From Chloroflexota bacterium (GTDB taxonomy: Bacteria; Chloroflexota; Dehalococcoidia; DSTF01; RBG-16-68-14), in NCBI GenBank assembly GCA_029262675.1, contig JAJCYW010000009.1:47198-111197 (forward strand): 64,000 bases of DNA. Reading direction: 5' to 3'. The notes under the pieces are model-generated. The model was not told the origin of the DNA and did no database searches. It saw only the letters and a program-made list of their open reading frames with translations. This document shows positions 16,521-64,000 of the stretch, piece by piece (the stretch's first letter is position 1; the number at the start of each line of letters is the position of its first letter). The position numbers were made by a program, and so were the translations under genes.

Positions 16521-16582
16521 TGTGGGCTGCATTCGCAACTCCTTCGGCTGCGCTAAGGACAGGCTCTCTGCCTGGGAAGCAT
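16521..16582 (+). repeat. intergenic repeat family, copy B (degenerate at the tRNA-like end)
   Basis: GCAACTCCTTCGGCTGCGCTAAGGACAGGCTCTCTGCCTGGGAAGCA aligns with copies A and C. Lies between the GH13 stop and the glgA start. Confidence 0.45.
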
Positions 16583-16742
16583 CGGTTCGCGGTGCGCAAA
16601 GGTGGGGGAGAGTGCGGCTTGAGGCCGCTTGCGGGCGTGAAGTTCATGTGAACGTCCGGCTCCTCATGGTATGGTTCAGGCCTAGATCGTCGGGGCCGAC
16701 TGCCGCGGTCCAGCGTCTGGTCGGCCTAGCAGCGAATGAACG

Positions 16743-26095: not shown

Positions 26096-26149
26096 GAGAA
26101 TGAGCATGCCATCGAACGTCAGTAGCACTATGGAGGACAGGTACTAGTC

Positions 26150-27172: not shown

Positions 27173-27287
27173 CGAGATCGGACGGCCAGCGGTCGTTCAA
27201 CTGCAAACAGGCGCGAGAGAACGGAATGGCACGGGATGCCCGTGGAATCAGGCCAAGGACGGCCGGACTGATGAACGGAGGAGAGAC

Positions 27288-41393: not shown

Positions 41394-41463
41394 CACAGTG
41401 GCAGAACAGCCAGTCTATCAGGCCCGCGCAGCGCACGGCCCCGGCCGTCGCCGGGCAAGTCGC

Positions 41464-46897: not shown

Positions 46898-47143
46898 ATG
46901 GAGAAGTTACGAGTTCCGGTGACGCTGGCCACTACGGCCTGCGGGACGATGCTCGCGCGGACGCTGGCCCCGCACCCGGTCTATGCCGGCGACGAGAGTC
47001 GGGACCGGGTGCTGGGTGGCGCGGGCACCGGCGTCCTGCTGTTTGCGCTGGTTCTGCTCGCGGCAGTCGGCGCGTTCGCCGCGGGTATCCTCTGGCGGGA
47101 GCGTCAGGACGGGGATACGCCTGACAGCGAACAGCTATACTAG
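46898..47143 (+). CDS. possible small single-TM protein upstream of the GMC oxidoreductase (speculative)
   Basis: 81-aa ORF with one hydrophobic helix (VLLFALVLLAAVGAFAAGILW). No recognisable homology. Confidence 0.2.
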   Translation: MEKLRVPVTLATTACGTMLARTLAPHPVYAGDESRDRVLGGAGTGVLLFALVLLAAVGAFAAGILWRERQDGDTPDSEQLY

Positions 47144-47174
47144 TTCGGCCCGACCGGCTAGAGGGAGGCGGAAC

Positions 47175-48970: not shown

Positions 48971-50557
48971 TTGAGCGATGCCACATTCGACGCAGTCATT
49001 ATCGGGGCAGGCCACAACGGGCTTTCGTTAGGTACCTACCTATCGAAGTGTGGCTGGGATGTCGCGATATTCGAGAAGCGCACTGAAGAGGGCGGCGGCC
49101 TCTGTACGGAAGAGCTGACGCGCCCCGGGTTTCTTCACAACGTTCACTGCAACTACCACACGCTGGTCGGCGTCTGTCCCGTCTATGACGATTTGGACCT
49201 GTACGATCATGGCCTGAAGTACGTCCAGCCGGAAGTGCAGATGGGGAGCGTCTTCCGTGACGGCACGGCGCTGACCGTACATACGGACATCGACAAGACG
49301 TGCGCGTCGTTTGCGCGTTTCTCGGAGAAGGACGCTGAGACGTTCCGCCGGCTGCACGATGAGGTGAAGGGCTACCTGGACCTGATCCTGAGTACGCTGA
49401 TGTACTCGCCGCCCATCCCGTTGCTCGATATTACGAAGGCGCTTGTCGTCTGGAAAATCACCGACAAGGCGGAGTTCCTGAGCGTCCATCTGCGCAACAT
49501 GACGATCAACGAGTTCCTGGACGAGCACTTCGAGAGCGACAAGATCAAGGCGATGCTTGCTTTCCAGGCAGCCATTTCCGGCTACGCGACGGACCTAAGA
49601 GGGCTCGCCGTGTCGTTCCCGCTCTTGGTTGGCAAAATGGATAATTGGCACGTCTGCGTCGGCGGTTCTCATCAACTCGCGCACTCGCTCTGGGAGGCGT
49701 TCGCGCATGCGGGCGGGAGCGTCTTCCTGAACACGCCGGTTGCAGGCATCGTGACGGACAACGGCAAGGCGACCGGCGTTCGCCTCTACGACGGCAGCGA
49801 GGTGAAGGCCCGGCACGCCGTCATCAGCACGATCGACGTGGAGCAGACGTTCCTGAAGATGTTGCCGCGCGAGAAGCTGGACCCGGAGCTCGTGAAGCAT
49901 GTGGAAGACGTCTCGCACATCGATTGGTCATATTACAGCGTTCACCTGGCCATGAGCGAAGCTCCTCAGTACGAGGCGGCATCATTCGACCCGGACATCC
50001 AGAATGCTTGGGTACTCAATGCCGGCTATGAGTCGCTGGATGACCTGAGTCAGGACTGGAAGACCGTCCGCGCGGGCAAGCTGGCCGATCCCAAGCCGAA
50101 CTGCGCCGTGAACTCGCTGTTCGATCCGACGGACTCGCCCGATGGCTCGTTTACGGGCCTGATGCGCCAGTTCGCCCCGATCGAGATCGGGAGCGGCGGT
50201 ATGGAGGCGTGGGACGAGATGGCTGGCCCATACGGAGAGCGCCTCATCGACGCGTGGACGTCGTACGCTCCGAACGTGAGAGGCGCGACGATCGAATGGC
50301 AGTCATACACGCCTCTGGACATCTCGCGCCGGATGGTGAACATGGTCCGCGGCGACTGGATGGGCGGCGTCATCGCGCTCGACAACCTGCTGACGGAGCG
50401 GCCAACTCCGGAGCTATCGCAGTACAAGACGCCGTTCGAGGGCCTGTACATGGCTGGGGCCACGCAGCATCCGCACGGATTCATCACGTTCGCGCCGGGC
50501 TACAACGCGCTGCAGGTAATCGCAGAAGATCACGGATTGGAGCGCTGGTGGCAATGA
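48971..50557 (+). CDS. FAD/NAD(P)-dependent oxidoreductase of the phytoene-desaturase (CrtI-like) family, copy 1
   Basis: TTG start with a GAGGGGG RBS. FDAVIIGAGHNGLSLGTYLSKCG (Rossmann GxGxxG) and ...EKRTEEGGGLCTEEL. About 528 aa. Confidence 0.7.
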   Translation: MSDATFDAVIIGAGHNGLSLGTYLSKCGWDVAIFEKRTEEGGGLCTEELTRPGFLHNVHCNYHTLVGVCPVYDDLDLYDHGLKYVQPEVQMGSVFRDGTALTVHTDIDKTCASFARFSEKDAETFRRLHDEVKGYLDLILSTLMYSPPIPLLDITKALVVWKITDKAEFLSVHLRNMTINEFLDEHFESDKIKAMLAFQAAISGYATDLRGLAVSFPLLVGKMDNWHVCVGGSHQLAHSLWEAFAHAGGSVFLNTPVAGIVTDNGKATGVRLYDGSEVKARHAVISTIDVEQTFLKMLPREKLDPELVKHVEDVSHIDWSYYSVHLAMSEAPQYEAASFDPDIQNAWVLNAGYESLDDLSQDWKTVRAGKLADPKPNCAVNSLFDPTDSPDGSFTGLMRQFAPIEIGSGGMEAWDEMAGPYGERLIDAWTSYAPNVRGATIEWQSYTPLDISRRMVNMVRGDWMGGVIALDNLLTERPTPELSQYKTPFEGLYMAGATQHPHGFITFAPGYNALQVIAEDHGLERWWQ

Positions 50558-51081
50558 CGGGCTCTGTTTCGACAAACGGGACCGTGCCGATTCGGGCGGT
50601 GGCAGGCGACGAAGCCAGTGGGCTGGCCAACATCATTACGCAGTACCTGGAACAGCTCTTGGGCGACTCGGCGGAGAAGCGCGCCGCGGCGTCGTCGCTG
50701 CGGGGCCGTCTTGGCATGAACGCGCGCGAGAGCGACGTGGCGGTGACGATCGTGTTCGCGGACGGCGCCATCGAAATCGAAGAAGGCCTGCAGGAGCCGG
50801 ACGCCGTGATCGGCGGCGAATTGGAATTCCTAATGCACATGATGGCGGGCCGGGCTAACCCGGCGTGGGAGATGCTGAACCGGAAGATGACGATCCGGCC
50901 AGGACGGCGGCCGCTCTTCGCATACCAGGCCTACAGCCTGATGCGGCTGCCGGGCGTACATGTGTGGAACGGGGTGCCGAGGCCGCCCACAGGCGTTCTG
51001 GTGGGCGCGGCGGCCGCGCTGGTGATTGGACTATCGATCATGTACGCCCGACGCAGGGCACCAGGAGGTGACGATGCCTGA
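50554..51081 (+). CDS. SCP2 (sterol-carrier-protein-2)-like lipid-binding protein with C-terminal TM helix
   Basis: ATGA overlap with the upstream gene. ...VAVTIVFADGAIEIEEG...DAVIGGELEFLMHMMAGRANPAWEMLNRKMTIRPGR is SCP2-like. C-terminal GVLVGAAAALVIGLSIMYA helix. Confidence 0.5.
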   Translation: MTGSVSTNGTVPIRAVAGDEASGLANIITQYLEQLLGDSAEKRAAASSLRGRLGMNARESDVAVTIVFADGAIEIEEGLQEPDAVIGGELEFLMHMMAGRANPAWEMLNRKMTIRPGRRPLFAYQAYSLMRLPGVHVWNGVPRPPTGVLVGAAAALVIGLSIMYARRRAPGGDDA

Positions 51082-52687
51082 GGCAACGTATGATGCAGTG
51101 ATCATCGGCGCGGGCCACAACGGACTCACGCTGGCGGCCTACCTCGCGAGGTCGGGGTTGTCCGTTGGGATCTTCGAGCGCAGGCACGAGGACGGCGGTG
51201 GTGTAAACACGGAGGAGGCGACCGTTCCCGGCTTCCACCACAACCTTCATGCTCAGTACATGGAGTTCATCGACTACATGCCGGTCTACCACGACTTCGA
51301 GCTGGAGAAGTGGGGCTCTCGGATGATCAAACCAGACACCCAACTGGGTATCACGTTCGCTGACGGGAGGCCGCCGCTCATTATCTACCGGCCCGATCCT
51401 GAGCTGGACAAGAAGACCCACAAGAGCATCTCCGAGCACTCCAAGCACGACGCGGACACGTGGCTGGAACTGAAGACGAAGATGATGGAAAGAGAGTTCC
51501 AGATAGCAGCCACGCTCTACAGCCCGGCGGAGGCCGAGGACGACGCCGAGGCGTCGGCTGCCATGATGAGCGCGGGCCTTAGCCTCTGGCAGGACCTGGG
51601 CCTAACGGCGAACGATATCGGCAAGGCGCCGAAGGTGCTGATCGATCGCTTCTTCGAATCGACGGAGATGCGGGCGTTGCTCTACCGCCAGTGCATCGAG
51701 TGGGGCGCAAACGTACACGCCGGCAACGGGTACGGCTTCCTGGTCTCCGTCCTCTGGCTCAGCGCGATCCACTATATGTCCGCCGGCGGCACGCATACGT
51801 TGGCGCACGCCATGGCGAACGCTGCGTTGAAGGCGGGCGCGTGCATGCGTTTCAGCAGCCCCGTGGTCAAGATCCTCTTTGAAGGCGGGCGCGCCTCGGG
51901 CATCCAGCTCAAGGACGGAACGAAGGTCAATGCGACGAAACTCGTCGCTTCGAACGTCGATCCCAGGCAGACGTTCGTGGACTTCATCGGCGAAGAGAAC
52001 CTGGAGCCGTTCCGCAAGGAGCGGTTGGCCGGCTGGCACTTCGGTCCGGAGCACGTCCTCGGCACGCCGTCGTTCGCGCTTCACGAAGCGCCGAACTACA
52101 AGTCCGCGAAATGGAACGAGGACATCAACCGCTGCTTCTACACCGTCGTTGGGTTCGAGACAGCGGAGCAAGTGTCCAACTACATCCTGCAGGCATACGG
52201 CGGCCAGATACCGGACCGGCCGGGCGCCGGCACGTGGGTCAACTCGCTGTGGGATCCCACGCAGGCGCCGGCGGGCAAGCACGTGATGAACGGCTGGTTC
52301 TTCTTCCCCAAGGCCTCATGCCTCAGCGAAGCAGAGTGGGATGAGGTACGTGCTACGTACAATGACAAGTTCCTGAAGCTGTGGGAGGAGTACGCTCCGA
52401 ACATGACGCGCAAGAACGTCATCGCGGACCGGCTGTATACGGCCTTCGACATCGAGAAGAAGATGTCGATGCCGGAGGGTGATTTCTCGCAGGGCCGCGC
52501 CGGCGGTATCGGCGTTGGTGTGGCTCGTGAGTACCAGTACCGGACGGAGTTTCCGGGCCTATACCTCTGCGGTCCGTCCGCCGGAGGTGGGGGCGTCAGT
52601 TCCGCCCCGGGCTACGGCTCGTTCAAAGTCATCTGCAAAGACCTCGACCTGCCAAAGATCTGGCAACAGGGGGGTCGGAACTACTAA
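51074..52687 (+). CDS. FAD/NAD(P)-dependent oxidoreductase of the phytoene-desaturase (CrtI-like) family, copy 2
   Basis: CCAGGAGG RBS. YDAVIIGAGHNGLTLAAYLARSG. Colinear paralog of 48971..50557. Confidence 0.7.
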   Translation: MPEATYDAVIIGAGHNGLTLAAYLARSGLSVGIFERRHEDGGGVNTEEATVPGFHHNLHAQYMEFIDYMPVYHDFELEKWGSRMIKPDTQLGITFADGRPPLIIYRPDPELDKKTHKSISEHSKHDADTWLELKTKMMEREFQIAATLYSPAEAEDDAEASAAMMSAGLSLWQDLGLTANDIGKAPKVLIDRFFESTEMRALLYRQCIEWGANVHAGNGYGFLVSVLWLSAIHYMSAGGTHTLAHAMANAALKAGACMRFSSPVVKILFEGGRASGIQLKDGTKVNATKLVASNVDPRQTFVDFIGEENLEPFRKERLAGWHFGPEHVLGTPSFALHEAPNYKSAKWNEDINRCFYTVVGFETAEQVSNYILQAYGGQIPDRPGAGTWVNSLWDPTQAPAGKHVMNGWFFFPKASCLSEAEWDEVRATYNDKFLKLWEEYAPNMTRKNVIADRLYTAFDIEKKMSMPEGDFSQGRAGGIGVGVAREYQYRTEFPGLYLCGPSAGGGGVSSAPGYGSFKVICKDLDLPKIWQQGGRNY

Positions 52688-52697
52688 GGAGTGCGCC

Positions 52698-53168
52698 ATG
52701 GCCGAGATCTACACCACCGCCTGGTACGACAGCATGAAGGATCTCCTCAACAAGAGCGATGAGGTCACGAAGAACGCACCGCAGGGTGTCTGGCGCATCC
52801 TGGCGGAGATTCGCGGCGATGGCACATCACCCTACATCGGCGGCGATGATGTCAAACGCTTCTCGATAGTGCTCGACGATGGCAAATGCGCGAGCTACCA
52901 GGAGCTGACAGAGGCGCCGCCGCGGAAGGACTTCGAATTCATCCTGGAGATGCCCGCCGGCCTCTTCGAGCGTATCGTCGCCAACCAGGCAGATCCGCTT
53001 GAGGCCGGGCTAAAGGGTGACGTGAAGATCGTCGGCGACATGCGGGTGCTGATCCAGAACGCGGAGCTAGTGAACGTCCTCTCTGAGATCTACCAGCGCG
53101 AGATCGAAACGGAGTGGCCTAACGGTACCCCTCCGTACGAGGCAGCGACTGCTGGAGGTGCGGCATGA
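52698..53168 (+). CDS. SCP2-domain protein
   Basis: AAGGAG RBS. ...FSIVLDDGKCASYQELTE...FEFILEMPAGLFERIVANQADPLEAGLKGDVKIVGDMRVLIQNAELVNVL is an SCP2 fold signature. Confidence 0.55.
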   Translation: MAEIYTTAWYDSMKDLLNKSDEVTKNAPQGVWRILAEIRGDGTSPYIGGDDVKRFSIVLDDGKCASYQELTEAPPRKDFEFILEMPAGLFERIVANQADPLEAGLKGDVKIVGDMRVLIQNAELVNVLSEIYQREIETEWPNGTPPYEAATAGGAA

Positions 53169-55945
53169 CCGAAGCAGGCCTATTGCTACACGCCCTCGCC
53201 GAAAAGAAGGGAGGCGGCAGCGAATCCTATGGCTCCTGGGAGGATCTGTATCGCGGGAAATGGACGTGGGACCGCGTCGTCAAAGGTACGTGCAACCGGG
53301 CTGACTGCATCGCAGCTTGCTCGTTGGACCTGTTCGTTAAGGACGGCATCGTGTGGCGAGAAGAGCAGAACGCCATCTACGACCAGACCAACGAGGCGGT
53401 GCCAGACTTCAACCCACGTGGCTGCCAGAAGGGCATCTGCTACAGCGACCTGATGTACGATGCGTCTCGCATCAAGTACCCGCTGCGAAGAGTTGGCGAG
53501 CGTGGCTCCGGAAAGTGGGAGCGCATCTCATGGGATGAGGCGCTAACGGAGATCTCCGACAAGGTCCTTGATGTCTGCAAGGAGGATGGCCCGGAGAGCA
53601 TCATCTACGACTTCGGCACAACGAACATCGACTTCGGACCTGGAACGCCCGCCGAGCAGCAACTGACCCGCCTGATCGGCACGACGTCGCTCGATGAGTG
53701 GGCCGGCGTGGGCGACCTTCCCATGGGCGCCATCCAGACCTGGGGCCTCTTCAACGCTGATGGGACCTCCGACGATTGGTTCAACGCCGATACGATCTTG
53801 GTCTGGCTGGGCAATCCCGTCTACACGCGGGTGCCGGACGTGCACTTTATGTTCGAGGCGCGCTACAAGGGCGCCGAAGTGGTAACGATCGCGCCTGATT
53901 ACAACGCCACCGTGGTGCATTCCGACCTCTGGGTGAACCCGCGCGTCGGAACGGACGCCGCTCTGGCGCTTGCGATGTGCAACGTGATCGTGGAGGAGGG
54001 GCTGCAGAAGGATCGCTACGTGCAGGAACAGACCGACCTGCCGTTCCTGGTACGCGAAGACGCCGGCCGCTTCCTCCGCCAATCCGACATCGCCAAGGAT
54101 GGCAAGGATGACGTTTTTTACGTCTGGGATCTAGCCACCAAATCGCTACAAGAAGCGCCAGGGACGATGGGACAGCCGGATGCGTCGCTCGACCTGGGTG
54201 ACCTCGACCCCGCGATGGAGGGCGATTTCGAGGTAGAGCTGCTGGACGGCAGGAAGGTGACCGTACGACCCGCCTTCCTGGCGCTCAAGAAACGTTTGGA
54301 CGAATACACGCCGGAGCGCGCCGCAGAGATCACAGGCGTCGCCGCCAGCACGATCCGGCGTTTGGCCCGACGGGTAGCTGAGAGTCCCGCCACGCTGATT
54401 TTCTGCTCGTGGGGGGCCTGCAAGCACTACCACATGGACCTCGTGCAGCGATCCATCATCCTGCTGCTCGCGCTCACCGGCAACACGGGTAAGCGCGGCG
54501 CCGGTATGCGCATCGGCGCTTGGTGGAACATGTCGCTCAGCTACGACAAGGCTGGCGTCGGCGCACTTGCGGCGGCCGGCGCCCCAGCAGAGCGGCCCAA
54601 GGTCCGCGACCTTGAGAACTTGATGAAGACGCTGATGAAGGCAAACTCGTCGATCAGCCCGACGATGCCGTTCCTCTATAAGCACGACAAGGGCTACGCG
54701 AAGCTGGTCGACACGCCCGGCTATCACGACCCCGATCTGAAGCGCCCCATTAGCGAGTACATGCAGGAGGCGTTCGATAAGGACTGGATGCCTGTCTATC
54801 CCAGGGACGGCAAGTCGCCGCGGGTCTTCCTCTACACGGGTATGAACCCGCTGCGCCGCTGGCCGGCCCCCGATGCCATTCGCGAGAATCTGTGGGCGAA
54901 TTTCGAGTTGATCGTGACATGGGATTTCCGCATGTCCAGCTCCGGCATGTACTCGGACATCATCCTGCCCGCGGCAGGATGGCACGAGAAGTCCGGCGTC
55001 AAGTTCACCCAGAGCTATGTGCCGTACATCTGTGTTGGTGAGCAGGCCGTGGAGCCGCTCTACGAGTCAAAGAACGAGTTCGACATCATGGCCAAGCTGG
55101 CGGCTACGCTGGAGCGGCGGGCCAAAGAGCGGGAAGAAGCCCCGTACAAGGATGTGTTCGGTAACGAGCACGATCCAACAGACATCGCCCGCCTCTGGAG
55201 CTTGGACGGTGAGTTCGGCGAGGGAGACGCGGAAAAGGCGCTGGACGTCCAATTCGAGCTCTCAGATCCGGTTGGAGATGCTACGTGGGCGGAGGCGGCT
55301 GAGAAGGGGGCGGTGCGCGTGACGTCGACGGGAGGCTATGGGCCGATCACCGCCATCACGAATGAAGTTGAGGAAGGTGAGACGCTCTACCCGTTCGCGT
55401 GGTTTGTCAGGGACAAGGAGTCTTGGCCCACGCTCACCGGACGCCAGCAGTTCTACATCGACCATCCGTGGTTCCTAGAGGCCGGCGAAGAGTTGCCCAC
55501 GCACAAGGAGGCCCCTCCCGCTGGCGGCGATTACCCGCTGCGGATGACAGGTGGACATACGCGTTGGAGCATCCACGCTATCTGGAGGAGCAATCGCACG
55601 CTCCTTCGACTCCAACGCGGCGAGCCCGTGATGTACATCAGCACGCAGGACGCGGCGGCGCGCGGCCTGGATGACCATGACCTGGCCTTGGTCCACAACG
55701 ATGTAGGCGGGTTCAAGGTGAGAGTGAAGCTGGCGCCCAGTGTTCAGCCGGGCCAGGTGGTCATGTATCACGCCTGGGAGCCGTACCAGTTCGAGCAGTG
55801 GTCGGGCCAGCAGGCTGTTAACCCATCGCCGCTGAAGCCCCTCCACCTAGTGGGGGACTACGTCCAGCTTTCGTATCGGTTTGCCCTGGCCCAACCCAGC
55901 AACATTTCTCGGGCGATGACGGTCGAACTGACAAAGGTGGAGTGA
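53165..55945 (+). CDS. molybdopterin (bis-MGD) oxidoreductase alpha subunit, type II DMSO-reductase family (NarG/EbdA/C25DH-like), paralog 1; no Tat signal
   Basis: N-terminal ...WTWDRVVKGTCNRADCIAACSLDLFVKDGIVWREEQ...NPRGCQKGICYSDLMY..RIKYPLRRVGERGSGKWERISWDEAL parallels the NarG FS0-cluster/N-domain. No RR motif. 926 aa. ATGA overlap with the SCP2 gene. Confidence 0.8.
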   Translation: MTEAGLLLHALAEKKGGGSESYGSWEDLYRGKWTWDRVVKGTCNRADCIAACSLDLFVKDGIVWREEQNAIYDQTNEAVPDFNPRGCQKGICYSDLMYDASRIKYPLRRVGERGSGKWERISWDEALTEISDKVLDVCKEDGPESIIYDFGTTNIDFGPGTPAEQQLTRLIGTTSLDEWAGVGDLPMGAIQTWGLFNADGTSDDWFNADTILVWLGNPVYTRVPDVHFMFEARYKGAEVVTIAPDYNATVVHSDLWVNPRVGTDAALALAMCNVIVEEGLQKDRYVQEQTDLPFLVREDAGRFLRQSDIAKDGKDDVFYVWDLATKSLQEAPGTMGQPDASLDLGDLDPAMEGDFEVELLDGRKVTVRPAFLALKKRLDEYTPERAAEITGVAASTIRRLARRVAESPATLIFCSWGACKHYHMDLVQRSIILLLALTGNTGKRGAGMRIGAWWNMSLSYDKAGVGALAAAGAPAERPKVRDLENLMKTLMKANSSISPTMPFLYKHDKGYAKLVDTPGYHDPDLKRPISEYMQEAFDKDWMPVYPRDGKSPRVFLYTGMNPLRRWPAPDAIRENLWANFELIVTWDFRMSSSGMYSDIILPAAGWHEKSGVKFTQSYVPYICVGEQAVEPLYESKNEFDIMAKLAATLERRAKEREEAPYKDVFGNEHDPTDIARLWSLDGEFGEGDAEKALDVQFELSDPVGDATWAEAAEKGAVRVTSTGGYGPITAITNEVEEGETLYPFAWFVRDKESWPTLTGRQQFYIDHPWFLEAGEELPTHKEAPPAGGDYPLRMTGGHTRWSIHAIWRSNRTLLRLQRGEPVMYISTQDAAARGLDDHDLALVHNDVGGFKVRVKLAPSVQPGQVVMYHAWEPYQFEQWSGQQAVNPSPLKPLHLVGDYVQLSYRFALAQPSNISRAMTVELTKVE

Positions 55946-55961
55946 GAAGCGAGGTGCAGTC

Positions 55962-56612
55962 ATGCGCGTAGGTCGAGTTGATACAAGAGATGAGGAGCTG
56001 CTGAGCCCTGAGTCGACGGCCTGGCAGGAAGCCGCCGTCAATGAGGTTGTGTTGTCGCCGACACCCCTCGAGTTGCAGCCTACCGATTACATTCGCGTTT
56101 CCCGAAACGGCCGTCCGTACGGCGCGGTTTCGAGCATGAGGGTGAGCGCCCTGCACAACGGCGACAGTGTGTTCTTCCACTTGGTTTGGCAGGATGACTC
56201 TGAAGATCGGGCGATCAAGGACATCAACCAGTTCGTGGATGGCGCCGCCGTGATGTTCCCGATAGTCGAGGATGCGCCGCTCATTGGCATGGGAATCCAA
56301 GGCAAGCCAGTGAACGTATGGATGTGGCGCGCCGACTGGGAACGGCCGAAGAACGTCGCTGCGGAAGGGATGGGGACGACTCAGCGCCGGGACGACCCGG
56401 CACTTTCGTCCGCGGTGCGTCATGCCGATGGGAATTGGGATCTGATCGTTGGCAGATCGCTCGAAGAAAGAGACGCCCCTCCGGGGACGATCGCACTGGC
56501 GCCCGGAGCGGCGTCGAAGATCGGATTCGCAGTCTGGCAGGGTTCCGAACAGGAGCGAGCCGGTCTGAAGGCATTCTCTCCCGCCTGGCAAGATCTAGAG
56601 CTTGATGCGTAG
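55962..56612 (+). CDS. EbdC/DdhC-like heme-b gamma subunit (EB_dh domain), without signal peptide
   Basis: GAGGTG RBS. ...MRVSALHNGDSVFFHLVWQDDSEDRAIKDINQFVDGAAVMFP...GKPVNVWMWRADWE matches the ethylbenzene-dehydrogenase gamma-subunit fold pattern. N-terminus is hydrophilic. Confidence 0.6.
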   Translation: MRVGRVDTRDEELLSPESTAWQEAAVNEVVLSPTPLELQPTDYIRVSRNGRPYGAVSSMRVSALHNGDSVFFHLVWQDDSEDRAIKDINQFVDGAAVMFPIVEDAPLIGMGIQGKPVNVWMWRADWERPKNVAAEGMGTTQRRDDPALSSAVRHADGNWDLIVGRSLEERDAPPGTIALAPGAASKIGFAVWQGSEQERAGLKAFSPAWQDLELDA

Positions 56613-56630
56613 CGGAAAGTAGGGCTCGCC

Positions 56631-57683
56631 ATGACTGAACGACAACTCGCGTTCGTCTTCGACCTCAACAAGTGCTTGGGCTGTCAGACGTGCACTATTT
56701 CGTGCAAGACGCTTTGGACGGACCAGCCGGGCATGGAATACATGTGGTGGAACATCGTCAATACGATGCCCGGCCGGGGCACGCCGCGCGATCGGGACCA
56801 AATGGGCGGCGGTTTCGATGCTGAAGGGCGCGCGCAAGCGGGCGTGCTGCCGAGCGCAAAAGACTTCGGCGAGGCCTGGGACTTCAACTACGATGAGGTC
56901 TTTTACGAAGGGAAGGGCCAATCGGCACACCTCCACCCGCGCAGTCCAAGCGCGAACGGCAAGGACGAAGCACCAGAGTGGGGGCCGAACTGGGATGAGG
57001 ATCAGGGCGCGGGCGATTACCCGAACAGCTACTATTTCTACCTACCGACGATTTGCATGCACTGCACGGACCCGGCCTGCCTGGCCGCGTGCCCGCGTCA
57101 GGCGATCTCCAAGCGGGAGGAGGACGGCATCGTCCTCATCGACGAAGACCGCTGCGACGGATACCGATTCTGCATGGAGGCCTGTCCGTACAAGCGCATC
57201 TACTTCAACCCGGACCGTTTCATCTCACAGAAGTGTGTCATGTGCTTCGCGAGGCTGGAACAGGGCGTCGCGCCCGCCTGCGTTCGCCAGTGTCCCGGGC
57301 GCGTTCGCCACTTCGGCTATCTCGACGATGAGGAGAGCGACATCTTTAAGCTCGTCAAGACGTGGAAGGTGGCGATCCCGTTGCACCCTGAGTTCGGCAC
57401 ACAGCCGAACGTGTACTATGTGCCGCCGCTCGCCCCGCCGCGCTTCGACGAGAACGGTGAGATCGATGAAGAGAACCCTCGCATCCCCATGGACTACCTG
57501 CGCTCGCTCTTCGGCCCGGCGGTGGATCAGTCGCTCGCGACGCTCAAGCTGGAGATGGAGAAGACGCGGCAGGGAGAGAAGTCAGAGCTGACGGATATTC
57601 TCATCGCTTACAAGTGGCAGAACATGTTCATTCCGTTTGTGGAGGACCCGGGTGAATTGAGCCGCCCGGCGCCTAAGTCATGA
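56631..57683 (+). CDS. 4Fe-4S/3Fe-4S beta subunit (NarH/EbdB-like)
   Basis: Four Cys clusters: CLGCQTCTISC, CMHCTDPACLAACP, CDGYRFCMEACP, CVMCFARLEQGVAPACVRQCP. About 350 aa. Confidence 0.85.
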   Translation: MTERQLAFVFDLNKCLGCQTCTISCKTLWTDQPGMEYMWWNIVNTMPGRGTPRDRDQMGGGFDAEGRAQAGVLPSAKDFGEAWDFNYDEVFYEGKGQSAHLHPRSPSANGKDEAPEWGPNWDEDQGAGDYPNSYYFYLPTICMHCTDPACLAACPRQAISKREEDGIVLIDEDRCDGYRFCMEACPYKRIYFNPDRFISQKCVMCFARLEQGVAPACVRQCPGRVRHFGYLDDEESDIFKLVKTWKVAIPLHPEFGTQPNVYYVPPLAPPRFDENGEIDEENPRIPMDYLRSLFGPAVDQSLATLKLEMEKTRQGEKSELTDILIAYKWQNMFIPFVEDPGELSRPAPKS

Positions 57684-58357
57684 TGCAAATCGAATCGCTC
57701 GGCACGCAGGAAGGAATCGTCGCGGCCGCCCACAGCCGCCTCTATCGGCTGCTTGCGGACGGCATCTTGTTCCCGGATCGTGACGCTTTCGATGAGATCA
57801 AGGCGGGGCGCGTTCGCGACTACGTTGTGGAGACGTGCCGGGAGTTGCCGTACGCTCTGGAGCCAGCGTTCGATGGGCTGGTGGCTTCGGGTGAGTACGT
57901 GGACTTTCAGTCCGAGTTCCTCAGGGTATTCGAAGTCGGCCAAGGCATGCCGCCATGCCCGCTCTACAGCGGGATCTATAGAGGCGGGAGAAAGGCCGTG
58001 ATGGAAGAGTTGGCGCGCTTCTATTCCTACTTCGGCCTGTCGATCGAACACGGCTCAGGGGAGCTGCCAGATCACTTGGCGACCGAGCTGGAATTCATGC
58101 ACTTCCTCGCATTCAAGGAGTTGACCGCCCTTCACCAGGAGAAGGACCCGATGCCGTACCGGCGTGCCCAGGCAGATTTTCTGGAGCGTCAGCTTGTATC
58201 GTGGGTGCCTTCGCTGGAGAAGAGACTACAGGGAGCGGCACCGCCTCCGTTCTATACAGCGCTTGTTTGGCTGACCAACGCGTTGGCTCGCGAGCACCTT
58301 GCGTTGCTCAATGGATCAGTCGATCGGAATGCCACGATTTCATTGGATGCAGTGTGA
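57680..58357 (+). CDS. TorD/NarJ/EbdD-family assembly chaperone (delta)
   Basis: ATGA overlap with beta. The all-helical ~225 aa protein in the position and size of NarJ/EbdD. Identification is largely by context. Confidence 0.55.
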
Positions 58358-59481
58358 TGACCGCAGCCATCTGCGTTGTTGGGCGAAAGAACAGCGGCAA
58401 GACGACCCTCATCGAACGTCTCTTGCCAGAACTGCGGGCTCGCGGCCGAAAGGTGGCGACGCTCAAGCACGATGCGCACGACTTCGAGATCGACCTACCG
58501 GGGAAGGACACGTGGCGTCACCGCCAGGCGGGGAGCACCACCACTGTGATTTCGTCCTCTTCGAAGGTTGCCATGGTGCGATCGACCGATCGCGAGACGC
58601 CGTTGGATGAGTTGCTGCGGCTAGTAGACGACTCATGCGATCTGGTGCTCATCGAAGGGCTGCGGCGCAGCGCGTGTCCGAAGATCCTTGTTCATCGACC
58701 GGAAGTCGGTGGCCCGCCAGGCGTTCTTGGTGAGGTCTGGGCCGTCGTCGGAGACGAGACGCCGGAGACGAATCGAAGCGCCACGCGGATCGCGGCGAAC
58801 GACGTCAAGGCGCTTGCCGATCTTATCGAGGAGCGGCTCCTGGGTGGAAGCGTCCAGGCTCCTGCCTGGAACCTGCCGGCGTTGTTGGCCGAGGCAAGCC
58901 GCCATCATGGCCATATCTGCCCCGGACAGGTGCTGGGAGTGCGGATGGCGATCTTGGGATGCGAGCGGCTGGGGATCTACGAACCGAAGTCATCGAAGCG
59001 CCTCATTACATTTGTCGAGACGGATCGATGCGGGACGGACGCGGTGCAGACCGTGACGGGCTGCACGCTCGGCAAGCGGACGCTCAAGTTCGTTGACTAT
59101 GGCAAGCTTGCGGCGACGTTCCTCGATTCGGAGACAGGCCGCGCTGTGCGGATCGTCGCCAGGGAGAGCGCGCGCGACGCCGCGCTACAGTTTGCGCCGG
59201 ACGAGATAGACGCGCATGCTGCGCAGTTGAGAGCGTACAAGGCGCTGCCGGAGGACGTCCTGTTCAGCGTGCAGGACGTACGAGCTACGTTGGCTGAGAC
59301 GGAGCTACCTGGCCGGCCTCACGGTCGCGTCGTCTGCGCAGAGTGCGACGAGGGAGTCAACAACGGTCGCGAGTTGGCAGTCGCTGGAAGAACGTTGTGC
59401 CGCGCGTGCGCCGGCGTGCCGTACTACCAGGAAGCTGAAGACATCGTAACAACACAGAAGCAGAAATCGGAAGCGCCGTAA
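58357..59481 (+). CDS. MobB (molybdopterin-guanine dinucleotide biosynthesis, P-loop) fused to an FmdE/FwdE-like Zn-binding domain
   Basis: N-terminus [22 protein letters not shown] (MobB Walker A). C-terminal half ...[16 protein letters not shown]... plus CAECDE...CRAC (FmdE-like with Zn-ribbon). The ATG overlaps the upstream stop. Confidence 0.65.
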
Positions 59482-59498
59482 GCGAATGGAGGGACACC

Positions 59499-62330
59499 AT
59501 GGCACGGAAGAAAGCGTCAGCGAAGAAGGGAAATCGAACGGCAGATAGCTATCGCGATCGCTGGCGCTGGGACTCGGTGACCTGGGGCAGCCACTGCGTC
59601 GACTGCTATCCGAGCAACTGCCCGCACCGCGTCTTCGTGCGCGACGGCAAGATTGTGCGCGAAGAACAGTCGGGGACCTTCCCGGTCATCGAGAAGGGCG
59701 TGCCGGACATGAACCCGGCCGGCTGTCAGAAGGGCGCCATGTGGAGCCAGATGCACGACAGCGAGGATCGCATCATCTACCCGATGAAGCGGGTAGGCGA
59801 GCGAGGTTCCGGTGAATGGGAGCGCGTGTCTTGGGACGACGCGCTCACGGACATAGCCGACAAGATCATCGACGCTATCCAAGAGTACGGGTCGGAGTCC
59901 CTCGTCCGCATCGGCGAGCCGGCTGAAGGCGGCACGCAGGTGCTGGTCTGCGCCAGCATGCTGATCAACATGATTGGCGGCATCACGACTGACGTTCAGG
60001 CGGAGATCAACGACTTCAGTCCCGGTCTCTACACTACCTTCGGGAAGTTCGACCCGGCCGCGAGCGTGGACGACTGGTTCCACACGGAGCTCGTGCTGAT
60101 CTGGCACTGCAACCCGATCTACACGAACATCCCCTGGTACCACTACGTGGCGGAAGCGCGTTACAACGGTGGCGAAGTCATGCTCTTCGCGCCGGACTAC
60201 AGCCCTTCCGCGCTTCATACGGACCTGTTCGCGTCCGTGCGCCCCGGCACCGACGCGGCGCTTGCGCTCGGGATGTGCCAGGTGCTGGTCGAAGAGGGGC
60301 TCTATCACGATGACTTCGTGAAGGACCAGACGGACCTGTCTTTGCTGGTGCGAACGGACAACCAGCATTTCCTGCGCGCCAGCGATGTCGACGGCGGTCG
60401 GGACGACCAGTTCTACTGGTACGACACGGTGACGAAGAGCGTCGTCGAAGCGCCGCGAGGCACGCTCGCGCTTGGCGACGTCGATCCCGCTCTCGCCGGA
60501 GAGTTCGAGGCGACGCTCGCGGACGGCTCGAAGGTCACGGTAACGCCGGTCTTCGCGCTGCTTCGCGAAATGCTGAACCGCGACTATACGCCGGAGAAGG
60601 CCTCGGAGATCTGTGGCGTGCATCCGGACGTGATGCGGCGGGTGGCGCGCACGGCCGCGCGCAAGCGGACCCGCCTGCTCATGGGCTGGAACTCCGGCAA
60701 GTACTACCACGGCGACCTGATGGAACGGACGATGGCTCTCTTCCTCGGCCTGACCGGTAACTGGGGCCGGAAGGGGACCGGGGCCCGTTCATGGGCAGTA
60801 GGTTGGTATGAAGGTTTGTTCGCGCCGCTGGCCAAGGAAAAGCCAGGCCGCCAGGCCGCGCGCGACATGAAGAACATGATGGACCAACTGCTGGCGGCGG
60901 CTAAAGAGGCAGATCCCACCATGACCGATGAGATCGCGGTGGTGGAGGGGGAGTACGAGGCCGCTCGCATGGGTGGCATGGTCCCGGCCGTGTTCTTCTG
61001 GTACTACCACTGCGGGTTCCGGGAGCGCTGGAACAAGCCGGAGTGGAACGACCCCAGCATGAAGCGTACCTTCGACGAGTATGTCGAAGAGGGTATCGAA
61101 CGCGGCTGGTGGGAGGGGTTCCGCACGCCGGACGAAAAGACGCCGCCACAGGTGATCTTCGAGATTGGGAGCAACGTCCTGCGGCGCACACGTGGCGGCC
61201 AGGACATCCTTCTGGAGAACCTGTGGCCCGATCTGAAGCTCATCCTCACCATCGACTGGCGAGTGAGCACCACGGGGCTCATGTCGGACTACATCCTGCC
61301 GGCCGCCCATCACTACGAAAAGCTGAACTTCTGCTACCAGACGCCGCACGTCATGAATCTGACGTTCTCTGACAGGGCGGTAGACCCGCCGGGTGAGGCG
61401 AAGTCCGAGTGGCAGATCGTACTCGCACTGGCGAAGAAGCTCGGGGAACGGGGGAAGGCGCGCAACTTTGTTGAGTACCAGCATCGAGGCATGCCGATTC
61501 GCCTCGATACTCTCTACGATGCCCTGAGCAAGAACGGTGCTTACGACGATGACGAACGCTTGGTAGACGAGATGGTGAAGGACAGCGCCACCTTCGGCGT
61601 GATCCCCAAGGGGACCAATCTCAAGACGATGCGCGAGAAGGGATTCGTGCGCTTCACCGACTGGGGCCTCAGTTCCATGACCCTCGCCCAGGCTTCTGAC
61701 CTGAAGCCGGACGAGGCGCACGCGCCGTTCCGCAGACACACGGAGAAGAAGGAACCGTTCCCGACGTTGACGCGGCGCGCGCAGTTCTACATCGACCACG
61801 ACTGGTTCCTGGAGGCCGGCGAGGAGCTGCCGGTGCACAAGGAAACACCGAAGCAGGGCGGCAACTATCCACTCGTGCTCACGTCGGGCCACCCGCGGCA
61901 CAGCATCCACTCGATGAACATGACGAACAAGGTGATCCTGGCGACGCACCGTGGCCACCCCTCGATGTTCATCAGCCCAGAGGACGCGAAGGCGCGCGGC
62001 ATCAAGAACAACGAAACTGTGCGTATGCACAACGACGTGTCATCGGTCGAAATCGATACAAAGGTGTCCACGCTGGTTCGCCCGGGCCAGGTGATCGTTT
62101 ACAACGGCTGGGAGCCGTATCAGTTCGAGCAATGGAAGGGTACGGAGAACGTGGAGCCTGGGATGGTGAAGTGGCTTCACCTGGCGGGTGGCTATGGGCA
62201 TTTGCAGTATCGCAGCATCCACTGGCAGCCGGTGCCAATCGACCGGGCGATCCACGTCGACGTCGAGAAGATTAAGTCGAAGCGAAAGGCGAAGGCCGGC
62301 GCGAAACGAGTAGCCGCCAAGAGGAAGTAG
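59499..62330 (+). CDS. molybdopterin oxidoreductase alpha subunit, type II DMSO-reductase family, paralog 2; no Tat signal; Lys-rich termini
   Basis: ...WRWDSVTWGSHCVDCYPSNCPHRVFVRDGKIVREEQ...NPAGCQKGAMWSQMHD..RIIYPMKRVGERGSGEWERVSWDDAL. Colinear with 53165..55945 to the C-terminal ...GWEPYQFEQW.... 943 aa. Confidence 0.8.
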   Translation: MARKKASAKKGNRTADSYRDRWRWDSVTWGSHCVDCYPSNCPHRVFVRDGKIVREEQSGTFPVIEKGVPDMNPAGCQKGAMWSQMHDSEDRIIYPMKRVGERGSGEWERVSWDDALTDIADKIIDAIQEYGSESLVRIGEPAEGGTQVLVCASMLINMIGGITTDVQAEINDFSPGLYTTFGKFDPAASVDDWFHTELVLIWHCNPIYTNIPWYHYVAEARYNGGEVMLFAPDYSPSALHTDLFASVRPGTDAALALGMCQVLVEEGLYHDDFVKDQTDLSLLVRTDNQHFLRASDVDGGRDDQFYWYDTVTKSVVEAPRGTLALGDVDPALAGEFEATLADGSKVTVTPVFALLREMLNRDYTPEKASEICGVHPDVMRRVARTAARKRTRLLMGWNSGKYYHGDLMERTMALFLGLTGNWGRKGTGARSWAVGWYEGLFAPLAKEKPGRQAARDMKNMMDQLLAAAKEADPTMTDEIAVVEGEYEAARMGGMVPAVFFWYYHCGFRERWNKPEWNDPSMKRTFDEYVEEGIERGWWEGFRTPDEKTPPQVIFEIGSNVLRRTRGGQDILLENLWPDLKLILTIDWRVSTTGLMSDYILPAAHHYEKLNFCYQTPHVMNLTFSDRAVDPPGEAKSEWQIVLALAKKLGERGKARNFVEYQHRGMPIRLDTLYDALSKNGAYDDDERLVDEMVKDSATFGVIPKGTNLKTMREKGFVRFTDWGLSSMTLAQASDLKPDEAHAPFRRHTEKKEPFPTLTRRAQFYIDHDWFLEAGEELPVHKETPKQGGNYPLVLTSGHPRHSIHSMNMTNKVILATHRGHPSMFISPEDAKARGIKNNETVRMHNDVSSVEIDTKVSTLVRPGQVIVYNGWEPYQFEQWKGTENVEPGMVKWLHLAGGYGHLQYRSIHWQPVPIDRAIHVDVEKIKSKRKAKAGAKRVAAKRK

Positions 62331-62523
62331 GCAGCCGCGACGGGCAAGAGAATGGAAGAGAAACTACGCGGCCGGCGACGCTGGATGGTCGAGTCGCAGA
62401 TAGCACGCGAACGTACTGAATCGCCGGGTCGTGGGAACGGCGGCCCGCCGATCACCCGCCGGCGCTAGAGGTCGAACCGACGCAGCGTCCGCTCGGCGAG
62501 ACCTCAGCGCTCAAGGAGGCGCG

Positions 62524-64000
62524 ATGTCACGTGGACCGGAGCGGTCGCAGGGAATGACACCTAGTGATGCGTCGCTCCCGCTGCTGAACGAAGTCGTCAC
62601 CCGAAGAAGGTTCCTCCAGGGAGTCTCAGCGGGTGCTGCCGCGCTGTATCTGACACAGCTAGGTTGCAGCGGCGGCGCCGACGGCATTCGCCGGGTGGTC
62701 GAGCAGAATCAAGCGTTCGGGAACTGGACAGACGTCTTTCGGCAGAAGTGGTCGTGGGACAAGGTGACGTGGGGCACGCACCTGATCGATTGCTATCCCG
62801 GGAGCTGCCTCTTCCGTGTCTACACTAAGGACGGCGTCGTCTGGCGGGAAGAGCAAGCCGGCCGCTATCCGGAGATAGAGGCGGGTGTGCCGGACATGAA
62901 CCCTCGCGGGTGTCAGAAGGGCTCCTGTTTCAGCGACGTCATGTATGGCGCCGAACGCCTGCGCTACCCTCTGCGGCGCGTGGGCGAGCGGGGGAGCGGC
63001 AAATGGGAGCGTATTTCTTGGGACGAAGCGCTCACGGAAGTGGCGGACGGCATCCTGGACGGGATCGACGAGGTCGGGCCGGAGTCGATCATCTACGAGA
63101 CGGGGCCGGGCAACGGCGGCATCGTAAACGGGCCGCTGCCGGGCTGGCGCCTGAGCCGCCTGATCGGCGCGACCGTGCTCGACACCAACGGCCTGGTAGG
63201 CGACTTCAACGTCGGCCTATTTGAGACGTTCGGGAAGTTCCACTTCGTCTCCTCTGTAGATGACTGGTTCCACTCCGACCTGATCCTGACCTGGCACATG
63301 AACCCGGTCTACACGCGCATTCCTAGCGCCCACTTCATCTATGAGGCGCGCTACCACGGCACCCGCGTCGTCAACATCGCGCCGGACTACAACGCCTCAA
63401 GCGTGCACGCCGACATGTGGGTGCCTGTCGAGCCCGGGACGGACGCCGCGCTGGCGCTGGCGCTCTGCCGAATCATCATCGACGAGGGCTGGATGAATCG
63501 GGACTTCGTCGTGGAACAGACGGACCTGCCACTCCTCGTGCGGCTGGACACGAACCAGTTCCTGCGAGAAACCGATCTCCGCATCGATGACGACGGCGCG
63601 CGTGACGACCAGTTCTATGTCTGGGACGAAGCTACCGGCGGGCTGTCGCCCGCGCCACGGGACACGCTCCGGCTCGAATCGACGCCCGCGCTCGAAGGGC
63701 GGTTCGCTGTTGAACTGGGCGATGGGACGGAGGTCGAGGTGACGCCCGCGTTCGTGCTGCTACGGGCGCGCCTGCAGGAGTACACGCCTGAGCACGCCTC
63801 CTCAGTTTCGGGTGTCAAGCCCTCCATGATACGCAAGCTCGCGCAGATGGTGGGTGAAGCAAAGCGAGTGCATATCCTGCAGGGCTTCAACACCAACAAG
63901 TACTACCACGGCGATCTAATCGAACGGGCACAGGCCCTGCTGCTGGCCTTGACGGGTAACTTCGGCCGGAAAGGCACGGGGATGCGCGGTTTCAATACCG
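62524..64000 (+). CDS. molybdopterin oxidoreductase alpha subunit, paralog 3, WITH twin-arginine (Tat) signal; 3' end outside the window
   Basis: ATG 62524 with an AAGGAGG RBS. N-terminus MSRGPERSQGMTPSDASLPLLNEVVTRRRFLQGVSAGAAALYLTQLGCSG has the Tat motif RRRFLQG. It continues ...WSWDKVTWGTHLIDCYPGSCLFRVYTKDGVVWREEQ... colinear with paralogs 1 and 2. Open to the window end. Confidence 0.75.
   Translation, partial: MSRGPERSQGMTPSDASLPLLNEVVTRRRFLQGVSAGAAALYLTQLGCSGGADGIRRVVEQNQAFGNWTDVFRQKWSWDKVTWGTHLIDCYPGSCLFRVYTKDGVVWREEQAGRYPEIEAGVPDMNPRGCQKGSCFSDVMYGAERLRYPLRRVGERGSGKWERISWDEALTEVADGILDGIDEVGPESIIYETGPGNGGIVNGPLPGWRLSRLIGATVLDTNGLVGDFNVGLFETFGKFHFVSSVDDWFHSDLILTWHMNPVYTRIPSAHFIYEARYHGTRVVNIAPDYNASSVHADMWVPVEPGTDAALALALCRIIIDEGWMNRDFVVEQTDLPLLVRLDTNQFLRETDLRIDDDGARDDQFYVWDEATGGLSPAPRDTLRLESTPALEGRFAVELGDGTEVEVTPAFVLLRARLQEYTPEHASSVSGVKPSMIRKLAQMVGEAKRVHILQGFNTNKYYHGDLIERAQALLLALTGNFGRKGTGMRGFNT

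Follow-up and report, generated by a model that had tools for sequence, protein, structure and literature searches.

Studies of the hydroxylation of unactivated carbon with oxygen from water have covered only a few proteobacterial enzymes, all of them periplasmic; the reaction is of interest for anaerobic carbon cycling and for biocatalysis, for example in 25-hydroxyvitamin D3 synthesis. Water-dependent hydroxylation of isoprenoid side chains is known from the steroid C25 and C26 dehydrogenases of the betaproteobacterium Sterolibacterium denitrificans (S25DH1-4 and S26DH1-3), which combine alpha, beta and gamma subunits carrying a molybdenum bis-pyranopterin guanine dinucleotide cofactor (Mo-bisPGD), iron-sulfur (FeS) clusters and haem b with a NarJ-like chaperone, and of whose several alpha paralogues some share one beta-gamma pair (PMC6016249, PMC7411048, PMC11061730). 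S25DH1, for which such sharing is documented, is composed of alpha1, beta3 and gamma3 (PMC6016249). The same organism has a delta-24 steroid desaturase (here delta-24-SD), related to the limonene dehydrogenase CtmAB, that consists of two adjacent paralogous ~60 kDa subunits, each with flavin mononucleotide (FMN) bound covalently to the His of an N-terminal G-F-L/R-x-N/S-T/L-H-A motif; its diene product is then C26-hydroxylated by the molybdenum enzyme S26DH2 (PMC11061730). A further close relative is the ethylbenzene dehydrogenase (EBDH) EbdABCD of Aromatoleum aromaticum (PDB 2IVF). Here we describe a locus in which these two oxygen-independent C-H oxidising systems, the molybdenum EBDH/S25DH type and the flavin CtmAB/delta-24-SD type, are joined with lipid carriers in a different phylum. 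It lies in a stretch of 64,000 nucleotides, hereafter the window, from an uncultured Chloroflexota bacterium (assembly GCA_029262675.1, contig JAJCYW010000009.1, positions 47,198 to 111,197 of the forward strand).

The operon comprises 11 genes, all on the + strand at window positions 48971-64000, in the order flavo1, scpA, flavo2, scpB, alpha1, gamma, beta, delta, MobB-FmdE, alpha2 and alpha3, each identified by Pfam and NCBIfam models. We consider it probable, though well short of certain, that this conserved Chloroflexota operon serves to oxidise, without oxygen, unactivated C-H bonds of a hydrophobic compound, which is most likely isoprenoid or steroid-like. The components come from known enzyme families; the novelty lies in bringing them together within a single operon of another phylum, in a predicted cytoplasmic location and in an altered ligation of the FS0 cluster. 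A preliminary description of the window had proposed the same gene content and order, with EBDH- and S25DH-like alpha subunits of the type II dimethyl sulfoxide (DMSO) reductase family, a haem b subunit of the EB_dh family, a TorD-like chaperone, two SCP2 proteins and a multi-alpha arrangement resembling that of Sterolibacterium. The model matches given below bear this out gene by gene, and S25DH1 provides the precedent for several alphas with a single beta/gamma set.

Three of the genes encode Mo-bisPGD catalytic subunits: alpha1 (53165-55945; Pfam Molybdopterin and Molydop_binding), alpha2 (59499-62330) and alpha3 (62524 to 64000 and beyond), the N-terminal 492 aa of alpha3 lying in the window and the rest past its end. 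When PDB was searched with phmmer, the best solved-structure match of all three was EbdA, at 585, 748 and 407 bits for alpha1, alpha2 and alpha3, respectively; PcrA ranked second, and NarG (271, 177 and 157 bits) and nitrite oxidoreductase (NXR) were far lower. The narG model of NCBIfam gave 320, 210 and 180 bits against a cutoff of 1084, and the EbdA equivalog model gave 440-807 bits against a cutoff of 2000. Since both sets of scores fall below their cutoffs, the alphas are orthologues of neither NarG nor EbdA but members of the same type II group. Scores of 952 and 916 bits were obtained with TIGR03479, slightly under its cutoff of 985. NarG-type features were also missing, as alpha1 and alpha2 are 926 and 943 aa long compared to ~1250 aa for NarG, the gamma subunit is an EB_dh protein and not NarI, and neither NarK, NarI nor chlorite dismutase was present among the window open reading frames (ORFs) scanned. 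The clustering with NarG and the narK/narI-type partners that would have spoken against the preliminary assignment were thus not found.

Identities to characterised enzymes are low. Alpha1 shares 47% identity with the alpha subunit found in two Sterolibacterium metagenome-assembled genomes (MAGs) and 36% with EbdA. For alpha2 the identity is 40% with EbdA and 38% with the Sterolibacterium protein, and the three window alphas are 39-52% identical to one another. The N-terminal sequence of the alpha subunit from one of these Sterolibacterium MAGs (locus L032), MQVSRRNFLVGSAVAAAG...YSLKPR, matches that of S. denitrificans alpha4/alpha1 (PMC7411048, Supplementary Table 3), on which ground the protein is taken as an S25dA orthologue. 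A neighbour-joining tree (79 sequences, 913 columns, 200 bootstraps) was calculated from EbdA, PcrA and 77 alphas from the window and from the loci of relatives, with the sequences of EbdA (residues 55-971) and PcrA rebuilt from PDB alignments. The split separating alpha1 and the Sterolibacterium sequences from EbdA, PcrA, alpha2 and alpha3 was recovered in 200/200 bootstraps, as was the split of alpha2, alpha3 and EbdA from the rest. Alpha1 therefore falls in the clade on the S25dA side, with many uncharacterised lineages between it and the S25dA orthologue, and alpha2 and alpha3 fall on the EbdA side. The tree places the alphas relative to EbdA and S25dA, and finer assignments are not settled by it.

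The Asp molybdenum ligand, equivalent to EbdA Asp223, is present in 79/79 aligned sequences including all three window alphas, and the Lys450 equivalent in 78/79, the sole exception being PcrA. EbdA His192 is not conserved and is replaced by Thr or Pro. Of the two features that the preliminary description had proposed to check, the Asp ligand is thus in place, and for FS0 all four ligands are present in the alphas of the alignment, with a different first ligand in alpha1 (see below). By sequence, the three alphas are type II DMSO-reductase-family proteins of the EBDH/S25DH kind and not of the NarG kind, and their predicted activity is a water- and acceptor-dependent C-H hydroxylation.

The same data bear on whether the operon might encode a respiratory oxyanion reductase or oxidoreductase of the type II family (perchlorate, chlorate, selenate or nitrate reductase, nitrite oxidoreductase or dimethyl sulfide dehydrogenase), which is the least likely of the explanations considered and a very improbable one. 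Alpha1 is nearly as similar to PcrA (576 bits) as to EbdA (585 bits) in the PDB search, and a cytoplasmic orientation, as predicted below for two of the alphas, is known for NarG and some NXR (PMC10100899). However, the scores against NarG and NXR themselves are far lower, Lys450 occurs in all three alphas and is missing in PcrA, and alpha1 groups with the S25dA orthologue and apart from PcrA in 200/200 bootstraps. Chlorite dismutase, NarI and NarK were not seen among the ORFs scanned, and the operon is joined to lipid-carrier and CtmAB-type genes.

The genes between alpha1 and alpha2 supply the remaining components of an EBDH-type enzyme. Gamma (55962-56612, 216 aa) matched Pfam EB_dh at 2.2e-28 and EbdC (2ivf_C) at 8e-37, with the haem ligands Met108 and Lys201 of EbdC aligned with Met and Lys; its TIGR03477 score was 165.6 bits (cutoff 169.85). 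A gamma that failed to match EB_dh, which would also have spoken against the preliminary assignment, was thus not observed. Beta (56631-57683, 350 aa; Pfam Fer4_11) is a four-cluster FeS subunit whose sequence shows four Cys groups, and which scored 516.7 bits with TIGR03478, above the cutoff of 480.7, and 492 bits with the EbdB model. Delta (57680-58357, 225 aa) is an assembly chaperone of the NarJ/TorD type, with a match to Pfam Nitrate_red_del at 3e-18 and a TIGR03482 score of 155.7 bits that exceeds the cutoff of 152.3. The 374-aa MobB-FmdE-zinc finger fusion (58357-59481) contains Pfam MobB (5e-41), FmdE (8e-35) and zf-dskA_traR domains, and reached 141 bits with the mobB model TIGR00176, above cutoff. 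EbdABCD is thus the best solved match of the alphas and gamma and, by NCBIfam, the best match of beta and delta. It shares with the window proteins Asp223, Lys450, the FS0 cysteines and the haem Met/Lys pair. It differs in sequence (36-46% identity, with equivalog scores of 632-807 bits against the cutoff of 2000), in His192, in gene order (alpha-gamma-beta-delta in the window) and in the lack of a twin-arginine translocation (Tat) signal on alpha1 and alpha2. By analogy with S25DH1, we infer that one beta/gamma set is shared among the three window alphas.

The predicted location of the alphas sets the operon apart from the characterised relatives that were checked, which are all Tat-exported and described as periplasmic. 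Every EBDH-like alpha subunit in Supplementary Table 3 of PMC7411048, a list comprising S25dA alpha1-4, S26DH alpha5-7, alpha8, CmdA, four EbdA proteins and a D. oleovorans Hxd3 protein, carries a Tat signal. Alpha1 and alpha2 of the window, in contrast, already start at the earliest codon that their ORFs allow and contain neither an RR motif nor a hydrophobic stretch. Alpha3 does have a Tat signal, TRRRFLQGVSAGAAALYLTQLGC, with the motif TRRRFLQG...LTQLGC. The Tat signal was absent from the 48 closest alpha1 homologues (0/48, at least 61% identity) and from the 120 closest alpha2 homologues (0/120), and was found in 61 of the next 72 alpha1 homologues (42-60% identity).

In alpha1 the FS0 motif is C-x4-C-x3-C...C, with Cys replacing His as the first ligand, compared to H-x3-C-x4-C...C in alpha2 and alpha3 and to the His of the S25DH/S26DH alphas. 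The Cys is present in 48/48 of the closest alpha1 homologues and in 14/14 alpha1-subclade sequences of the tree alignment, and within this subclade the loss of the Tat signal coincides exactly with the change from His to Cys. The Tat-less alpha1 and alpha2, the all-Cys FS0 site of alpha1 and the Tat signal on alpha3 are the most unusual features of the operon. We infer from the signals a cytoplasmic site of action for alpha1 and alpha2, and export for alpha3.

Only the Tat signal of the alpha subunit is informative on location, because EbdC itself has no signal peptide. The lack of a signal peptide on gamma had been considered as evidence for a cytoplasmic enzyme and was rejected, as EbdC (214 aa) aligns with gamma from residue 1-2 and likewise has none. 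A conserved ...QLGC closes the Tat signal of alpha3, comparable with the ...FGC or ...PGC at the end of those of S26DH alpha5-7. Read as a lipobox, TQLGC does not match the canonical pattern, and it is reported here only as a conserved Cys motif.

The two flavoprotein genes, flavo1 (48971-50557, 528 aa, TTG start; Pfam DAO/Amino_oxidase) and flavo2 (51074-52687, 537 aa), were called simply flavoproteins in the preliminary description. That label holds but was too general, for both can be placed in the CtmAB/delta-24-SD family of covalent-FMN enzymes by sequence, which strengthens the idea of an oxygen-independent pathway. In BLASTP comparisons with delta-24-SD's alpha and beta subunits, both aligned over ~510-550 residues (full length) at 28-31% identity, with E values of 1e-46 to 1e-71; the comparison of flavo1 with the beta subunit gave 31% identity at 9e-71 over the full length, and flavo2 gave 2e-46 to 5e-47 with the two subunits. 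Flavo1 and flavo2 are paralogues with 33% identity. As they are closer to each other than to either delta-24-SD subunit, they are not one-to-one orthologues of those subunits. PDB searches with the flavoproteins returned only distant matches of the CrtI/CrtN type.

The FMN-binding His57/His58 of the delta-24-SD subunits aligned with GFLHNVHC in flavo1 and GFHHNLHA in flavo2. Both motifs deviate from the printed consensus at 1-2 positions besides the His, that of flavo2 fitting except at the third position (His for Leu/Arg), and the core G-F-x-x-N-x-H is kept in nearly all flavoprotein homologues. FMN is therefore probably bound covalently to the conserved His in each subunit. Delta-24-SD (WP_067170564 and WP_067170561) and CtmAB of Castellaniella defragrans, which oxidise positions beside a C=C bond without oxygen, likewise consist of two paralogous COG1233 flavoproteins of ~55-63 kDa. 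The delta-24-SD genes are adjacent (locus tags 21262/21263) and have no SCP2 gene after each, whereas in the window each flavoprotein gene is followed by one; a ferredoxin or reductase of the CtmE/CtmF type is not in the window operon. From its sequence, the window flavoenzyme may either desaturate or hydroxylate.

The best NCBIfam model for both flavoproteins was the beta-carotene ketolase CrtO, with 247 bits for flavo1 and 150 bits for flavo2 against a cutoff of 1000. A ketolase identity was set aside, since the characterised delta-24-SD subunits have the same sub-threshold best match (151 and 167 bits), and the match is accordingly a family-level resemblance and not a functional call. It nevertheless raises the prospect of a biosynthetic role, in which the operon would serve the ketolation or hydroxylation of endogenous carotenoids or other isoprenoid lipids. 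Many Chloroflexota produce keto-carotenoids, and a tail-anchored SCP2 protein, described below, suggests a membrane-lipid substrate. We regard such a role as improbable: the CrtO scores are far under cutoff and the catabolic delta-24-SD gives the same result, crtB, crtI, crtY and other pigment genes were not found in the 64 kb window, and the 3-5 alpha paralogues per locus seen in relatives fit the diversification of catabolic substrates better.

The two carrier genes are scpA (50554-51081, 175 aa), whose product has a C-terminal hydrophobic tail, and scpB (52698-53168, 156 aa). Both proteins exceeded the gathering score of Pfam SCP2 (PF02036, 21.3 bits), with 30.8 and 24.9 bits, respectively, and the model was also matched by 26/28 scpA homologues and 28/29 scpB homologues. 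The two are distant from each other, their profile-profile comparison being weak (hhalign probability 52%), and each matches SCP2 independently. The hydrophobic tail of scpA is kept in 26/27 homologues and could tether the carrier to the membrane and allow it to hand over a lipid.

Together with the flavoprotein genes, the carrier genes form a recurrent four-gene cassette. A metagenome scan with flavo1 yielded 80 loci at 57-90% identity, in which the order flavo1-scpA-flavo2-scpB was found nearly everywhere that the contig was long enough, with the His motif conserved. A flank of 6 kb or more was available in 24 of the loci, and in 11 of these EBDH-like alpha, beta or gamma genes adjoined the cassette. 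The cassette thus forms an independent unit, linked to molybdoenzymes frequently though not in every case. A rearranged form, with flavo2-scpB preceding flavo1-scpA, was observed in metagenome loci L113-L122 and L127; two further CtmAB-like paralogues (28-36% identity) lie upstream there, and no molybdoenzyme gene was present in up to 21 kb.

Conservation of the locus was assessed in relatives, whose loci also supply the context downstream of alpha3, as the window ends at 64 kb. A scan with alpha1, keeping one genome per species, yielded 54 loci. The full operon order was kept in Chloroflexota MAG loci L001/L007 (RBG_16_68_14), L002, L003, L004, L005 and L006, and this recurrence indicates that the arrangement is not due to chance. 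Protein identity between the window and these loci was 57-95% (90% for alpha1 of L002). The conserved order reads flavoprotein, SCP2, flavoprotein, SCP2, alpha1, gamma, beta, delta, FmdE, alpha2, an optional second beta, and alpha3. The alpha3 orthologues of L001 and L002 are ~980 aa long, and in L001 FmdE is encoded separately, with a MobA-like gene after it. The second beta (FeS) gene of L001, L004 and L007 occupies the position of the 193-nt spacer (62331-62523) between alpha2 and alpha3 of the window; in the closest relative, L002, it is also missing and only a spacer is found. The stop codon of the L001 alpha3 orthologue overlaps the start codon of a gene for a 481-aa polytopic membrane protein without a Pfam family (16996-18441, +, RBG_16_68_14), and a CN-hydrolase and a radical SAM/SPASM protein are encoded further downstream.

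Among other Dehalococcoidia loci, L010-L020 and L042 contain 3-5 alpha paralogues, one beta and two gammas in ~22 kb, so that a layout with many alphas and few beta/gamma genes is common in these lineages. In L010, L017, L018 and L019 (Dehalococcoidia and Chloroflexia MAG loci) the expansion is greater than that of the window, with five EBDH-like alphas, one with and four without a Tat signal, grouped with one beta, two gammas and one delta in ~22 kb. Other Dehalococcoidia loci have an SCP2 gene directly 3' of alpha1-type genes, and in Ca. Binatus soli (L050) the flavoprotein/SCP2 cassette adjoins beta and alpha genes. At E <= 1e-50, more than 3754 relatives of alpha1 and more than 2158 of alpha2 were counted, and thousands of homologues stand in public data under generic names; among 240 homologues whose public names were inspected, only two had a specific one, 'steroid C-25 hydroxylase alpha subunit'. 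The nearest named sources were Chloroflexi/Chloroflexota and Dehalococcoidia MAGs, with Binatia and 'Deltaproteobacteria' next.

The favoured explanation also has a narrower form, a strict sterol side-chain pathway, with the flavoenzyme as a delta-24-type desaturase and the alphas as steroid C25/C26 dehydrogenases. In its favour are the position of alpha1 within the clade of the S25dA orthologue, the homology of the flavoproteins to delta-24-SD, the sterol-carrier fold of SCP2, the ending ...LGC of the alpha3 Tat signal, comparable with the ...FGC/...PGC of S26DH alpha5-7, and nearby genes for a GMC oxidoreductase and an SCPx-type thiolase. We nonetheless judge it unlikely in this strict form. 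Alpha1 shares only 47% identity with the S25dA orthologue and, at only 28-31%, the flavoproteins stand about as far from delta-24-SD as delta-24-SD does from limonene dehydrogenase (34-38%). The window is without a 25-hydroxysteroid kinase or lyase, AcmA/AcmB or genes for ring degradation, the scores of the GMC enzyme point to an MftG- or choline-dehydrogenase-like protein and not to a cholesterol oxidase, and the clades are scattered over MAGs from aquifer, sediment and soil. A sterol assignment is at this level of identity (28-47% to characterised enzymes) a putative one only.

A different hydrophobic substrate would be implied if the alphas belonged to an anaerobic n-alkane (C2-methylene) hydroxylase of the AhyABC type. 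AhyA is EBDH-like, is proposed to act on aliphatic substrates and is the label given to Chloroflexota homologues in surveys: Chloroflexota MAGs have been reported with several putative ahyA genes (PMC13170169), and many environmental EBDH-like sequences, some from the Rifle aquifer, were placed near ahyA (PMC7803848). Alkanes or fatty acyl chains are also possible SCP2 cargo. This explanation too appears to have little chance of being correct, as the Tat signal that AhyA of D. oleovorans Hxd3 carries is missing from alpha1 and alpha2, AhyA has itself been assigned its function by inference, and the linked CtmAB/delta-24-SD-type enzyme acts on allylic positions, which n-alkanes do not have.

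For the oxidation of an isoprenoid or steroid-like substrate, which remains our favoured explanation, the following sequence of events can be proposed. The SCP2 proteins, one of them membrane-tethered, would deliver the hydrophobic substrate, and a flavo1/flavo2 heteromer with covalent FMN would oxidise an allylic position, through desaturation or else through water-dependent hydroxylation. The Mo-bisPGD alphas would then hydroxylate tertiary or allylic carbons with oxygen from water, passing electrons from FS0 through the four FeS clusters of beta to the haem b of gamma and on to an acceptor. Delta and MobB-FmdE would mature the molybdenum cofactor. A single beta/gamma/delta set could serve all three alphas, including the exported one, in which case beta and gamma would be co-exported with alpha3 by means of its Tat signal, in the manner of EbdA.

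Such a scheme shares with S. denitrificans the pathway logic of a flavin desaturase followed by a molybdenum hydroxylase. The window differs in that the host belongs to the Chloroflexota, the substrate is predicted only, two of the alphas lack the Tat signal that all S25DH/S26DH alphas possess, and the molybdoenzyme and flavoenzyme genes are united in one operon with SCP2 genes and a MobB-FmdE fusion. If the explanation is correct, the 'desaturate, then hydroxylate with water' logic of Sterolibacterium would extend to abundant uncultured bacteria, new and possibly easier-to-express non-exported hydroxylases would become available, and the question would arise which acceptor serves a cytoplasmic high-potential haem b enzyme.

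Several points weigh against this explanation. The identities to characterised enzymes are low (28-47%), for which reason neither reaction type nor substrate can be transferred from them, and the functions suggested for the subclades are predictions. The tree has one partial outgroup (PcrA) and does not include S26dA, AhyA, CmdA, SerA, ClrA or DdhA. About half of the long-flank cassette loci are without EBDH-like neighbours, which makes the coupling of cassette and molybdoenzyme frequent and not obligatory. A cytoplasmic high-potential haem b subunit has no obvious redox partner, and no electron acceptor is encoded in the operon. The 193-nt spacer means that alpha3 may be transcribed on its own. 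Finally, the presence of a P450 and a luciferase-like monooxygenase in the window indicates that the organism is probably not an obligate anaerobe, which leaves the need for an oxygen-independent route unproven.

A broader proposal can be made only tentatively, and we think it more doubtful than the explanation above. Loci of this type would represent an uncharacterised class of cytoplasmic EBDH/S25DH-type hydroxylases in Chloroflexota, with the alpha2 type also in Binatia and deltaproteobacterial lineages, in which the alpha1 subclade lost its Tat signal and simultaneously acquired an all-Cys FS0 site and in which one beta-gamma-delta set serves cytoplasmic and exported alphas. Together with the covalent-FMN flavoenzyme and the tethered SCP2 protein, they might attack a membrane isoprenoid lipid from both faces of the membrane with water-derived oxygen, and so contribute to a widespread, overlooked turnover of recalcitrant lipids in aquifers, soils and sediments.

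A literature search of incomplete coverage found no description of the operon, of Tat-less EBDH-type alphas or of an SCP2-interleaved CtmAB-like cassette. The preliminary statement that such a system is not described for a high-GC monoderm organism is in keeping with this as far as the operon itself is concerned. It is too strong as a statement that nothing had been described for such organisms, because Chloroflexota MAGs have been reported to contain EBDH-like genes designated putative ahyA (PMC13170169); homologous operons are also present, unannotated, in public MAGs.

The genes of the operon are closely spaced, as the preliminary description had noted, although not in every detail as stated there. 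Three ATGA overlaps were found (flavo1/scpA, scpB/alpha1 and beta/delta) and none of the GTGA type; scpA and flavo2 overlap by 8 nt, and delta and MobB-FmdE by 1 nt. The remaining junctions are gaps of 10-18 nt with GGAG-like sites, except for alpha2/alpha3, where the 193-nt spacer stands and an AAGGAGG site lies 6 nt upstream of the alpha3 ATG. For both SCP2 genes and MobB-FmdE, the true starts are internal to longer mechanical ORFs. A promoter and terminator scan, which was uninformative, detected no terminator-like site on the + strand within 48.5-64 kb and no promoter-like sites. No tRNA genes or Rfam matches were obtained in the 64 kb window, and base composition is uniform across it, with no sign of recent transfer.

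Neighbouring genes in the window encode a GMC oxidoreductase, an acyl-CoA dehydrogenase, an SCPx-type thiolase, two CoA-transferase subunits, a P450 and a luciferase-like oxidoreductase/monooxygenase. The lipid-catabolic genes that had been reported upstream are therefore present; they are generic, and fit lipid catabolism only loosely. The GMC oxidoreductase (46983-48689, +), located just 5' of the operon, scored 394.4 bits with the MftG model, above its cutoff of 387.45, and nearly the same with a choline dehydrogenase model, below that cutoff. Further mycofactocin genes were not seen among the window ORFs scanned, and the homologue in L002 and L003 is on the opposite strand.

Elsewhere in the window, a 464-aa membrane protein (6677-8071, +) has weak sub-threshold matches to haem-copper oxidase subunit I and NnrS. 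A 1010-aa NHL/teneurin-like beta-propeller with an N-terminal cupredoxin domain of the plastocyanin/azurin type is encoded at 41290-44322 (+); this copper protein could in principle take electrons from an exported enzyme, and nothing ties it to the operon. At 18739-29351 (+), genes for FG-GAP-repeat proteins of very large size (590, 1256 and 733 aa), of which one has a weak dockerin match under the Pfam cutoff, are interleaved with those for an ABC exporter and a sulfotransferase, in what resembles a cluster for surface or secreted proteins with no relation to the operon. This region is flanked by genes of alpha-glucan metabolism (14663-18200 and 29359-32342, +), which encode an alpha-amylase-family enzyme, a GlgA-like starch synthase, an APH-family kinase, possibly a maltokinase, and a GH57 protein.

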